A stretch of 64,000 nt of DNA, from the IMG/VR virus record IMGVR_UViG_3300037316_000027, positions 1 to 64,000 of that record, one strand, 5' to 3'. A model generated the notes under the pieces. The model ran no database searches. It was not told where the DNA came from and saw nothing but the letters and a program-made list of their open reading frames with translations. The DNA is from a virus. A program made the position numbers and the translations under genes. Positions 2,480 to 4,207 of this stretch are shown in pieces; within the stretch, counting starts at the first letter, position 1, and every line of letters begins with the position of its first letter.

Positions 2480-2578
2480 TTGACTTCGTTTGGCGCTATA
2501 CGCCTGCGATCTTGATCGTAGGTGCTATCCTCAGCATATCCCTGACAATTTGGGGAGCTTACTGCCGATGCTGAGGAC

Positions 2579-2607
2579 TTGACAAGTCATCCGGCTTCGT
2601 CTATAAG
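2579..2607 (+). promoter_or_regulatory. sigma70-type promoter of the ncRNA/tRNA operon
   Basis: TTGACA (2579-2584) - 17 nt - TATAAG (2602-2607). Confidence 0.8.
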
Positions 2608-2614
2608 CCGCAAC

Positions 2615-2756
2615 TCAATCGCGACGAGAGCCCAGTGGCCCGTCCATACCGCCCCGTAGGCGCACCGCTTCGGCGGTCCCCGAGTTCGCTCGGGTAGCGT
2701 CACGGGGATGCACTGGGAAACGAACGAGGCGTCATCTGCACGCCTACAACGTCGAA
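2615..2756 (+). ncRNA. structured leader RNA / ncRNA, family unassigned
   Basis: Nested stems CGACG/CGTCG, CCCAGTG/CACTGGG, CCCCGT/ACGGGG; two hairpins with TTCG loops (ACCGC-TTCG-GCGGT, CCCGAG-TTCG-CTCGGG); AGGCGT/ACGCCT hairpin. Confidence 0.65.
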
Positions 2757-2769
2757 ACGAAAGAAGACG

Positions 2770-2799
2770 ATGAAGCTCGAAGGCCACACAAGCTATTGA
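2770..2799 (+). CDS. putative leader peptide MKLEGHTSY
   Basis: Purine-rich AAAGAAG upstream; last sense codon is Tyr; TGATG-coupled to a second micro-ORF (2799-2837) that enters tRNA-Tyr. Confidence 0.4.
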   Translation: MKLEGHTSY

Positions 2800-2816
2800 T
2801 GCTCGCTCCACGTTTT

Positions 2817-2900
2817 GGGCGGGCTGGGCATGAGTGAGCCTACCGATCTGTAAAATCGTTCCTTAAGGTGTGAAGGTGCAAATTCCTTCTCCGCCCACCA
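2817..2900 (+). tRNA. tRNA-Tyr(GTA), atypical D and T loops
   Basis: Acceptor GGGCGGG/TCCGCCC-ACCA; anticodon loop CT-GTA-AA; long variable region. Confidence 0.85.
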
Positions 2901-2920
2901 TTGCTGAAAGAACTGATCCG

Positions 2921-3100
2921 ATGATGCGACGCGCGAATAGCAACAGTCCGATGAACCCTGCCCCATTTCTGGGCGTGGGGGAGTTTGGCCGTCCCCGCTA
3001 CTCTCGGACAGTAGAGATCGAAGGTTCAAATCCTTCCGCCCCGACCATTCTCACAACATCGACTATTAGCGCCGCCGCGCAATCGCAAAGCTGGTCCTGA
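2921..3100 (+). CDS. putative sensor peptide reading through tRNA-Pro
   Basis: MMRRANSNSPMNPAPF-[tRNA-Pro]-ILTTSTISAAAQSQSWS*; stops 5 nt before tRNA-Trp; spacer codons almost all specify amino acids of the array's tRNAs. Confidence 0.5.
   Translation: MMRRANSNSPMNPAPFLGVGEFGRPRYSRTVEIEGSNPSAPTILTTSTISAAAQSQSWS
2969..3047 (+). tRNA. tRNA-Pro(CGG)
   Basis: CTACT-CTCGGAC-AGTAG anticodon arm, GGTTCAAATCC T arm, ACCA end. Confidence 0.9.
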
Positions 3101-3105
3101 TCTAT

Positions 3106-3179
3106 ACAGGATTGGTGTAGCGGTAGCACGGCGGTCTCCAAAACCGCTGGCCATGGTTCGAACCCATGATCCTGTGCCA
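3106..3179 (+). tRNA. tRNA-Trp(CCA)
   Basis: ACAGGAT/ATCCTGT-GCCA acceptor; GCGGT-CTCCAAA-ACCGC. Confidence 0.93.
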
Positions 3180-3180
3180 T

Positions 3181-3255
3181 GCGGGTTTGGTGTAACGGTA
3201 GCACAACGGGCTCTGAACCCGTTAGGTCAAGGTTCGAAACCTTGAGCCCGTGCCA
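3181..3255 (+). tRNA. tRNA-Gln(CTG)
   Basis: ACGGG-CTCTGAA-CCCGT; CAAGG-TTCGAAA-CCTTG; GCCA end. Confidence 0.92.
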
Positions 3256-3257
3256 AC

Positions 3258-3333
3258 GTCGATGTAGCTCAGCGGTAGAGCAATCCTTTCGTAAGGGGTA
3301 GGTCGCAGGTTCGATCCCATGCCATCGGCACCA
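3258..3333 (+). tRNA. tRNA-Thr(CGT)
   Basis: GTCGATG/CATCGGC-ACCA; ATCCT-TTCGTAA-GGGGT. Confidence 0.9.
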
Positions 3334-3337
3334 ATTC

Positions 3338-3414
3338 GCCAGTCTAGCTCAGTCAGGTAGAGCGCCGGGCTCATAATCCGGATGTCGTCGGTTCAAATCC
3401 CTCGGCTGGCACCA
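3338..3414 (+). tRNA. tRNA with CAT anticodon (elongator Met or Ile2)
   Basis: CCGGG-CTCATAA-TCCGG; G1-C72 is paired, so not an initiator. Confidence 0.88.
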
Positions 3415-3457
3415 ATCATCGGCAACTCGTGAGAGCTGCCGACATCTGATAACACAA

Positions 3458-3533
3458 GGGGCGATAGCTCAGATGGGAGAGCACCTGTTCTGCAAGCAGG
3501 GGGTCGCCGGTTCGAGGCCGGCTCGCTCCACCA
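3458..3533 (+). tRNA. tRNA-Ala(TGC)
   Basis: GGGGCGA/TCGCTCC with G3:U70; loop TC-TGC-AA. Confidence 0.92.
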
Positions 3534-3539
3534 AAGAAT

Positions 3540-3615
3540 GCCCCGTGTAGCTCAGCGGTAGAGCAAGCGGTCGATAACCGCTAGGTCGCTGGTTCAAATC
3601 CAGTCACGGGCACCA
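3540..3615 (+). tRNA. tRNA-Ile(GAT)
   Basis: AGCGG-TCGATAA-CCGCT; GGTTCAAATCC; ACCA end. Confidence 0.9.
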
Positions 3616-3632
3616 ACAAGGAGACGCGCGTC

Positions 3633-3707
3633 ATGTCATCAAGTAGTAGTCGATCGTTACGGAAGGGTGGCAGAGAGGCAATGCAGCGGCTTGCTAAGCC
3701 GTACTAG
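3633..3707 (+). CDS. Ser-rich leader peptide overlapping tRNA-Ser(GCT)
   Basis: AAGGAG SD (3618-3623), then ATG TCA TCA AGT AGT AGT CGA TCG TTA, continuing into the tRNA to TAG at 3705-3707. Confidence 0.6.
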   Translation: MSSSSSRSLRKGGREAMQRLAKPY

Positions 3708-3748
3708 GTTTGCGCCTAGCGTGTGTTCGATCCACACCCCTTCCGCCA
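3661..3748 (+). tRNA. tRNA-Ser(GCT)
   Basis: GGAAGGG/CCCTTCC-GCCA; GCGGC-TTGCTAA-GCCGT; long variable arm CTAGG/CCTAG. Confidence 0.93.
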
Positions 3749-3752
3749 GACT

Positions 3753-3839
3753 GGAGGGTGGCGTGTACGGTCGCACGAACGGTCCCGAAAACCGCGCCCG
3801 GCGCAAGCCGTGATGGTTCAATTCCTTCACCCTCCGCCA
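3753..3839 (+). tRNA. tRNA-Ser(CGA)
   Basis: GGAGGGT/ACCCTCC-GCCA; loop CC-CGA-AA; variable arm CGGC-GCAA-GCCG. Confidence 0.88.
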
Positions 3840-3843
3840 ATCC

Positions 3844-3918
3844 GCAGAGATAGCTCAGAGGTAGAGCGGCACGTTGAAGGCGTGCGCGTCAGTGGTTCGA
3901 TCCCATTTCTCTGCACCA
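3844..3918 (+). tRNA. tRNA-Phe(GAA)
   Basis: GCAGAGA/TCTCTGC-ACCA; GCACG-TTGAAGG-CGTGC. Confidence 0.9.
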
Positions 3919-3925
3919 CTGTTGT

Positions 3926-4001
3926 TTGGGGATAGCTCAGCCGGTAGAGCGACGCGCTGTTAACGCGTAGGTCGCAGGTTCGAACCCTGCTCCCCGAGCC
4001 A
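3926..4001 (+). tRNA. tRNA-Asn(GTT)
   Basis: TTGGGGA/TCCCCGA-GCCA; ACGCG-CTGTTAA-CGCGT. Confidence 0.93.
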
Positions 4002-4051
4002 TCGGCAACCATTTGCCTCTTCATGCGTTGTCGGTGAAGGAGGATACTCTC

Positions 4052-4207
4052 ATGGTAGTTATTCTATTGCTCGTCGCCCTGATCTGCGAAGTTCTGGCAG
4101 CCCTTGGCGTCCCACTCGGCAATCGTGTTCACCTAGGCTGGCTTGGCCTCGCCTTCATGATCGCCGCGATGCTGGTCGGTCCGATGTCCTTGCTCGTTAG
4201 GGGTTGA
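4052..4207 (+). CDS. small two-TM membrane protein (51 aa)
   Basis: AAGGAGG SD then ATG at 4052; two hydrophobic stretches. Confidence 0.7.
   Translation: MVVILLLVALICEVLAALGVPLGNRVHLGWLGLAFMIAAMLVGPMSLLVRG

Follow-up and report, generated by a model that had tools for sequence, protein, structure and literature searches.

The window analyzed here, the first 64 kilobases (kb) of the 126,820-base virus record IMGVR_UViG_3300037316_000027 (rated complete by CheckV), carries on its + strand an array of transfer RNA (tRNA) genes located 3' of a gene for an RtcB RNA ligase. An open reading frame (ORF) of 59 codons begins 16 codons upstream of tRNA-Pro(CGG), stays open through the whole tRNA, and stops 5 nucleotides (nt) before the next gene, tRNA-Trp(CCA). 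Our best reading, to which we lend about as much belief as doubt, is that the leader is translated and that its translation would gate the folding and processing of tRNA-Pro; it draws on comparison of related sequences and on predicted RNA structure. In the window alone the ORF is no more than chance, and the signal appears only through relatives. An earlier note, made from this one sequence, had spoken of a single ORF linking two sensor tracts, which is a fair description in the light of the relatives: start and frame recur in 16 of 17 lineages, Pro codons stand at positions -4 and -2 before the tRNA, and codons cognate to the next tRNA close the ORF in 13 of 13 loci. The features concerned are as follows.

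2921-3100, + strand: 59-codon ORF with ATG at 2921, made up of a leader, the 26 codons of tRNA-Pro(CGG), a tail, and the stop TGA at 3098-3100
2921-2968, + strand: leader part of the ORF, 16 codons, MMRRANSNSPMNPAPF
2956-2980, + strand: predicted anti-acceptor hairpin 1, leader 2956-2965 paired with tRNA-Pro 2970-2980
2969-3047, + strand: tRNA-Pro(CGG), 79 nt with a long D loop, called by ARAGORN and by the Rfam tRNA model (46.1 bits; gathering threshold 29)
3048-3097, + strand: tail of the ORF in the Pro-Trp spacer, ILTTSTISAAAQSQSWS, with the Trp codon at 3092-3094
3090-3116, + strand: predicted anti-acceptor hairpin 2, spacer 3090-3099 paired with tRNA-Trp 3107-3116
3098-3100, + strand: stop codon TGA, ending 5 nt before tRNA-Trp
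3106-3179, + strand: tRNA-Trp(CCA), the next array gene, called by ARAGORN and by Rfam (62.7 bits)

An open frame through tRNA-Pro in the window and its relatives

The course of the ORF from 2921 through tRNA-Pro to its end before tRNA-Trp, as given in the earlier note, is confirmed; the frame itself extends upstream to 2867 and includes GTG starts at 2870 and 2876. The ORF alone is unremarkable, because open frames are cheap at the 59.5% G+C of the window. There are 242 ATG-initiated ORFs of at least 59 codons in the 64 kb, with a summed length 1.75 times that of the window; 10 of the 12 tRNA or tRNA-like genes lie within a stop-free stretch of at least 40 codons in some frame. For tRNA-Pro itself, two of the three + frames are free of stops. 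The earlier note had taken the open frame inside the tRNA as evidence, which it is not: the tRNA is nearly invariant, and its frame 2 is equally open in the relatives. The check proposed there, that homologous tRNA-Pro genes keep the frame free of stops, comes out positive and is uninformative for the same two reasons, since it is passed trivially. The "dual coding" of tRNA-Pro would be incidental, because the frame is open through the tRNA's own sequence.

Relatives were collected with a query motif of 19 bases from the unusual long D arm of tRNA-Pro, which matched 7 IMG/VR and 34 metagenome stretches, and with a second 19-base D-arm motif (one N), which yielded one genome, that of Bosea lathyri DSM 26656 (L048), identical to the provirus L007. 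The genome scan gave six matches, and only L048 is the tRNA. Among the 42 motif matches 22 are the tRNA, in 19 distinct combinations of leader and tRNA; L006 and L009, where the gene lies directly 3' of another tRNA, and L020, a truncated copy of L002, were left out, giving 16 lineages. Of 15 further loci found with a T-arm/acceptor motif, L172 alone is a member of the family, which brings the total to 17 lineages; the ordinary tRNA-Pro genes found with that motif lack the leader. In all 17 lineages tRNA-Pro is the first ARAGORN-called tRNA of its array. The tRNA has the cloverleaf of an elongator with a Pro anticodon, and the 22 loci show compensatory changes in its anticodon and T stems.

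Other searches added little. A blastn search of the phage database with 2500-4100 found scattered tRNA matches only and no record covered to at least 80%. A search based on RtcB gave two loci; the array of L003 is different and lacks this tRNA-Pro, and the arrays of L003, L006, and L009 have no cognate-rich leader ORFs. Contigs of the DNA runs X2 and X3 represent close relatives only, with one synonymous change at 2947 and, in one relative, no gene corresponding to the tRNA-Tyr-like gene that precedes the ORF in the window. Contigs of the metatranscriptome library X16 do not cover 2921-3105 and are uninformative on expression of the ORF.

Homologous ORFs are present in all 17 lineages with a free leader. 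An ATG or GTG located 36-54 nt upstream and open to the tRNA is in frame 0 in 15 of the 16 lineages first collected, in frame +1 in one, and in frame +2 in none; L172 has an ATG at -48 in frame 0. Leaders are 45, 48, or 51 nt long, the exception being that of L036, which at 47 nt enters the tRNA in frame +1 and still encodes a peptide ending in RPRPAPE. In the tRNA-Pro(UGG) of L036, pair 2:71, a U-C mismatch in the window, is flipped; this removes the TGA usual for frame +1 in the 3' strand of the acceptor, so that the ORF of L036 also spans the whole tRNA. Summed over the leaders, the ORF frame has no stop in 251 codons, as against 3.8 expected from shuffled sequences (P = 0.018), and frame +2 has three. 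The leaders are not near-identical copies, because their first halves are highly variable: columns -54 to -24 have an entropy of about 1.6 bits each, and the closest N-terminal halves are mostly 54-79% identical.

Start signals take two forms. A Shine-Dalgarno (SD) core (GGAG, GAGG, or AGGA) lies 4-13 nt upstream of the start codon in 9 of 17 lineages, compared with 8% of window positions. In six of the remaining eight (L007, L008, L017, L034, L036, and L041), inspection by eye shows a -35/-10-like motif whose end falls 6-9 nt upstream of the ATG; L008 and L017 have here, 8-9 nt before the ATG, the motif TTGAC[AG]...TATAAG, as at the head of the array transcript in the window and five other loci. 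A promoter-like motif next to the ATG in these six lineages fits a leaderless layout. The window is not of this leaderless type, and its start signal is weak, as the earlier note had observed: its ATG has no SD core. Lack of a start signal is common to the window and L038, and in both a Tyr-like tRNA gene is inserted just 5' of the ORF.

The three Pro codons that the earlier note counted in the last seven before the tRNA are there: CCG at 2948 (codon -7), CCT at 2957 (codon -4), and CCA at 2963 (codon -2). The emphasis which that note placed on CCG, as cognate to the CGG anticodon, does not hold, any CCN being found in relatives. Codons -4 and -2 are CCN in all lineages; their first two bases (columns -12, -11, -6, and -5) are invariant C, and their third bases vary freely, with entropies of 1.89 and 1.47 bits. 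Codon -7 is mostly Pro across the lineages.

The other end of the ORF is tied to the gene that follows. Of the 13 loci with a called next tRNA, 12 have the stop 4-8 nt ahead of it, the gap in L017 being 21 nt, and the amino acid of that tRNA is encoded within the last three sense codons at all 13 loci, involving five tRNA types. W precedes tRNA-Trp in the window, L002, L038, L014, and L034; Q precedes tRNA-Gln in L005, L010, L035, L011, and L008; Y precedes tRNA-Tyr in L017, I (ATA) precedes tRNA-Ile(UAU) in L041, and T precedes tRNA-Thr in L172. The ORF of L007, which lies before a Tyr-like gene, ends in R-Y-stop. Leader and tRNA may be co-inherited, so the cautious count is the five tRNA types; if five tails are assigned to five tRNAs, 1 of the 120 possible assignments fits this well (our own count). 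The distance from the TGG codon to tRNA-Trp is 14 nt in the window, L002, L014, and L038, compared with 18 nt in L034.

Tails are 4-17 residues long and variable in sequence. In the ORF frame, 16 of the 17 tail residues in the window are among the amino acids served by its array, as against 8 of 16 and 7 of 15 in the shifted frames, and over all loci the corresponding figures are 78 of 101 as against 38 of 93 and 34 of 90. By our own reading about half of the tail codons in the window could be read by tRNAs of the array.

Predicted pairing of leader and spacer with tRNA 5' strands

What the earlier note missed is that its "sensor" codons lie in predicted hairpin arms that pair with tRNA 5' strands, a circumstance that supplies both a mechanism and a rival explanation in terms of RNA only. 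In hairpin 1 of the window, 10 pairs are predicted at -15.4 kcal/mol (ViennaRNA). A leader:tRNA hairpin of this kind, with a local energy of -14.5 to -22.0 kcal/mol, is part of the predicted minimum free energy (MFE) structure of leader plus tRNA-Pro for each of 16 lineages; it would replace the closed acceptor stem, with leader bases complementary to the invariant tRNA positions +3 to +11, and in several lineages the pairing reaches about -30:+27. Column -7, the third base of codon -3, is also invariant C. Because the invariance extends to this third codon position, the leader, as judged from sequence conservation, is constrained at the RNA level, whatever else is true.

At the other end of the ORF, hairpin 2 is predicted with 10 pairs at -11.2 kcal/mol (P = 0.03 against shuffled leaders) and contains the Trp codon and two bases of the stop. 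Pairing of the end of the spacer with the 5' strand of the next tRNA is likewise predicted in front of tRNA-Gln (10 pairs, -14.7 to -16.6 kcal/mol, P at most 0.015 against shuffled leaders), tRNA-Trp in general (-9.9 to -11.2 kcal/mol), and tRNA-Ile(UAU) (-12.7 kcal/mol). In L034 the acceptor stem of tRNA-Trp and the leader arm have changed together. The TGG at -14 is held in the window and L014 despite a different register of the hairpin. By comparison, 17 leaders of tRNA-Ala, -Asn, -Ile(GAU), -Met, -Phe, -Ser, and -Thr(GGU) that the tRNA-Pro ORF does not reach have no such pairing (P 0.08-1.0). The + strand of 2921-3105 has no terminator-like site; the only one found on that strand, 3171-3185, falls where tRNA-Trp and tRNA-Gln adjoin, and such a number is expected from shuffled sequence.

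A parallel case is found farther along the array.

3618-3707, + strand: Ser leader ORF, with SD AAGGAG at 3618-3623, 9 nt, and ATG at 3633, encoding MSSSSSRSL and entering tRNA-Ser(GCU) at 3661; TAG at 3705-3707

The stop of this ORF lies in the variable arm of tRNA-Ser(GCU). The homologous leader in L038 encodes MSSSSSRSF, with TCT for AGT (a switch between the Ser codon families) and one extra base before the tRNA, and that in L041 encodes MSSSGRLSYIH. In IMG/VR an ATG-initiated ORF with at least three Ser codons occurs in 7 of 90 distinct contexts 5' of similar tRNA-Ser genes; the peptides include MSSSSRSSVS and, in L159, MPDDSSSSSEK with five different Ser codons in a row, and similar leaders are found in the unrelated contigs L100, L159, L092, L098, L123, and L055. 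A fold check of the Ser leaders gave no hairpin with their tRNA, so the argument from RNA pairing cannot explain them. To judge by these sequences, the Ser leaders raise the prior that this phage group translates tRNA leaders. Library X16 contains a 202-base contig with one difference that extends from the Ser leader across tRNA-Ser into the following tRNA (3638-3803), for which DNA carry-over is possible, and a relative's contig at 3661 with seven Ser codons in a run directly before tRNA-Ser.

Proposed gating by translation and its alternatives

The best reading may be put as follows. The first 16 codons would be a translated leader heading the tRNA array of a phage of Rhizobiales-like hosts. 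When no ribosome is present, the leader would pair with nt +2 to +12 of tRNA-Pro, the acceptor stem could not close, and ribonuclease P (RNase P) would not cut. A ribosome on the leader, above all one awaiting Pro-tRNA at the Pro codons, would keep the hairpin open; were the codon at -12 to occupy the A site, the front of the ribosome would come to about the first base of the tRNA, leaving the tRNA free to fold and be released. Ribosomes that pass without pausing would unwind tRNA-Pro, read through it, and terminate at the TGA at 3098-3100, inside the hairpin predicted to lock tRNA-Trp, and the Trp codon 14 nt before tRNA-Trp could act like the Pro codons. The position of the cognate codon 12-14 nt before the tRNA fits the geometry of the proposed stall. 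Access of Rho to the C-rich, G-poor spacers might be an alternative output. Translation of the ORF, pausing of ribosomes, and the effect of hairpin or ribosome occupancy on processing by RNase P (or on Rho access) are what we infer here.

Several observations weigh against this reading. The window ORF has neither an SD core upstream of the ATG at 2921 nor an adjacent promoter, and the putative leaderless layout of other lineages was read by eye, a consensus promoter scan giving no sites in L008, L007, or L041. Conservation at the protein level is absent from the N-terminal half of the peptide, and since the differences among L005, L010, and L011 are mostly non-synonymous, the ratio of non-synonymous to synonymous rates (dN/dS) lends no support; G+C at third codon positions (GC3) is 0.59-0.62 in the parts of the ORF, as against 0.72-0.79 in neighbouring genes. 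The hairpin arm and the Pro codons occupy the same bases, and pairing fits the invariant C at column -7 better than coding does. In the tail the CAA, ACA, and ACT codons are not readable by the phage's own tRNA-Gln(CUG) and tRNA-Thr(CGU). The MFE predictions ignore tertiary structure and modification of the tRNA, the footprint geometry assumes a distance of about 12 nt between the A-site codon and the 3' edge of the ribosome, and the 17 lineages are related, so that the effective sample is smaller than the counts.

Much of this would be expected if cis-acting anti-acceptor hairpins controlled the folding, processing order, or stability of the first tRNAs with no role for the ribosome, the ORF, its Pro codons, and its stop being by-products of selection for pairing with the 5' thirds of the tRNAs, which are invariant. 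We regard this as possible, if on balance doubtful. It accounts for the leader:tRNA hairpin predicted in 16 of 16 lineages, for the joint change of Trp leader and acceptor stem in L034, and for the fact that the invariant leader columns, third position -7 included, are those that pair with invariant tRNA bases; the TAA and TGA stops of the Gln and Trp leaders sit in hairpin arms, and the lack of protein-level conservation in the N-terminal half and the low GC3 agree with it. What it leaves unexplained is the ATG or GTG found 45-51 nt upstream and in a single frame for 16 of 17 lineages, the excess of SD cores, the promoter motif right at the ATG of L008 and L017, the TGG held at -14 in the window and L014 though the hairpin register differs, and the Ser leader ORFs with their strong SD and no hairpin. 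A still simpler account, that the ORF is a chance product of GC-rich, stop-poor DNA around a conserved tRNA, with start and frame shared by descent only, appears improbable. The abundance of long ORFs in the window, the open stretches over 10 of its 12 tRNA or tRNA-like genes, an ORF of 162 amino acids running through several tRNAs on the minus strand of L002, the openness of tRNA frame 2 in all relatives, and the mere three stops in leader frame +2 all speak for it, but the start, the length class, and the start signals persist in strongly diverged leaders, the same ATG is reached from two different initiation layouts, and the position of the stop follows the next tRNA in 12 of 13 loci.

The multi-input sensor of the earlier note, in which mirror-ordered tracts for Thr, Gln, and Trp and additional Asn, Met, and Phe codons would each report on one tRNA, also seems improbable in its full form. 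Enrichment of the array's amino acids among tail residues favors it, as does a mirror-like order in L014 (N..I..Q..W before Trp, Gln, Ile, and Asn) and in L041 (SSS.SS I before Ile, Ser, and Ser). The tail of the window, reported as T-T-T, Q-Q, W, does carry the W, but actually reads T-T-S-T and Q-S-Q, and a strict mirror order is not supported. The codons for Thr (ACA, ACA, ACT) and Gln (CAA, CAA) are ones that the isoacceptors of the phage do not read. The counts of three Asn codons and of Phe codons stand for the part before the tRNA (three Asn and one Phe; four and two overall), but the supposed match of Asn, Met, and Phe to the array does not: leader residues belonging to the array set are not enriched (67 of 117, compared with 52 of 105 and 59 of 106 in shifted frames). 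Moreover, L002 has eight Ser codons in leader and tail and no tRNA-Ser in its array, L014 has Thr codons and no called tRNA-Thr, codons far from a tRNA have no obvious route by which to act, and the pattern was found post hoc. That the 59-residue product is a functional small protein is most improbable: the ORF is full-length in relatives, but its middle is dictated by the tRNA, its tail varies in length and sequence, its N-terminal half is poorly conserved, and L036 uses another frame of the tRNA.

A more specific form of gating by translation, on-demand release, would have the array's leading tRNAs locked as precursors by leaders paired with their 5' acceptor strands, and unlocked only when a ribosome translating the ORF pauses on a codon for the same amino acid just upstream; we consider it unlikely. 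The pause codons (CAA, ACA, CCA/CCU) would largely be read by host isoacceptors rather than by the phage tRNAs with C34, and therefore the device would sense the loss of host tRNAs, for example to anticodon nucleases. The response would be release of phage tRNAs, beside the phage RtcB, and the Ser leaders in front of tRNA-Ser, found in several unrelated phage contigs, might represent the same principle without a hairpin.

The array and comparison with known systems

Other features of the array and the region upstream of it are the following.

1112-2479: RtcB-family RNA ligase gene, directly 5' of the array (Pfam E = 7.6e-66; 86% identity in L002)
2579-2607, + strand: promoter-like motif TTGACA-N17-TATAAG heading the array transcript, identified by eye
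2615-2765, + strand: conserved structured RNA of about 150 nt, between the promoter-like motif and the leader ORFs
2816-2900, + strand: tRNA-Tyr(GTA)-like gene with a cloverleaf fold and the T loop TGCAAAT, between the structured RNA and the ORF
3752-3839: Ser(CGA)-like tRNA, matching the Rfam tRNA-Sec model at 42.5 bits, below its gathering threshold of 47

ARAGORN and Rfam identify ten genes in the array: Pro, Trp, Gln, Thr, Met, Ala, Ile, Ser, Phe, and Asn. The Ser(CGA)-like gene has no ARAGORN call in the window, and its homologue is called Ser(cga) in L038 and L041. The tRNA-Tyr(GTA)-like gene is called neither by ARAGORN nor by Rfam; its cloverleaf is present also in L007/L048 and L038. 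It is an insertion, missing from L002 and from relatives in X2 and X3 (joint 2751/2754 to 2913). A 9-codon ORF, MKLEGHTSY-stop (2770-2799), lies 5' of this gene, and its last codon is again cognate. The RtcB RNA ligase beside the array fits a context of tRNA repair.

The promoter-like motif is kept 5' of the structured RNA in L002, L005, L010, L011, and L014; the consensus promoter scan misses the copy at 2579-2607, since the scan requires T as the final base of the -10 element. The structured RNA, in which RNAalifold places 40 predicted pairs from six loci, with compensatory changes at 8 of these pairs, is common to the window, L002, L005, L010, L011, L014, and L172, and has no Rfam match at E up to 1. 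In the relatives its 3' end lies just ahead of the SD of the leader ORF. A recurring spacer module, consisting of a 6-7 base-pair hairpin (ATCGGCA...TGCCGA) followed by CTGATAAC and containing stops in two frames, occurs between tRNA-Met and tRNA-Ala (window 3415-3457) and, in L038, between tRNA-Ile and the Ser leader.

Ribosome-mediated attenuation is the way in which leader peptides such as trpL, hisL, pheL, leuL, and thrL control amino-acid operons. The ORF described here resembles the trp and his attenuators in being a short 5' ORF with a start signal (weak in the window) and cognate codons, and in that its putative regulatory codons lie in the "region 1" of mutually exclusive pairings, as predicted here. 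In contrast to these attenuators, the region lacks a 3:4 terminator hairpin followed by a U run, and what would be controlled is a tRNA, not enzymes of biosynthesis; the acceptor stem of the tRNA takes the place of "region 2:3," and the ORF runs through the whole tRNA instead of stopping before the structure. The proposed control would be a variant of ribosome-mediated attenuation. Pro codons in the leader ORFs mgtL and mgtP reportedly tie the progress of ribosomes to Pro-tRNA or elongation factor P (EF-P), switching the structure of the leader RNA. Their target is the mRNA of a Mg2+ transporter, whereas here it would be a phage tRNA-Pro gene, and the Pro codons are non-consecutive. These Pro-codon leader ORFs belong to Salmonella mgtA and mgtCBR (PMC6460261).

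The polycysteine leaderless small ORFs of mycobacteria provide another parallel, in that a ribosome stalled in the cognate tract blocks an inhibitory RNA duplex (bioRxiv 10.1101/834739); that duplex hides the ribosome-binding site of a protein gene, and the one predicted here would hide the 5' acceptor strand of a tRNA. Two further precedents concern RNase P directly: in a synthetic RNase P riboswitch, leader structure gates RNase P cleavage in Escherichia coli (PMC7897497), and pairing between the leader and the 3'RCCA inhibits RNase P (PMC9433436). In both, as we propose for tRNA-Pro, the structure of the 5' leader decides the processing of the pre-tRNA; the two cases are engineered and ligand-driven or in vitro, whereas the proposed element would be natural, would pair with the 5' acceptor strand, and would be opened by ribosomes. 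Like transfer-messenger RNA (tmRNA), it would combine a tRNA-like part and a reading frame in one RNA; it differs from tmRNA in that the ORF is provided with a start of its own and the tRNA is a normal elongator bearing a Pro anticodon. No tmRNA was found by ARAGORN in the window or the whole record, nor by Rfam at the gathering threshold or at E up to 1, and 2500-4100 has no Rfam match to a T-box riboswitch at E up to 1. A search of full-text literature, supplements aside, returned no leader peptide that controls a tRNA gene and no ORF that runs through one.

One lesson for annotation is that short ORFs overlapping tRNA genes are not always noise. Because a cultured strain, Bosea lathyri DSM 26656, harbors a relative (L048) as a prophage, the proposed gating is directly open to test. 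If it is true, phage tRNA arrays would not be merely constitutive supplements, but would be regulated by the very translation they serve, which would bear on why phages carry tRNAs and on their arms race with tRNA-cleaving host defences.

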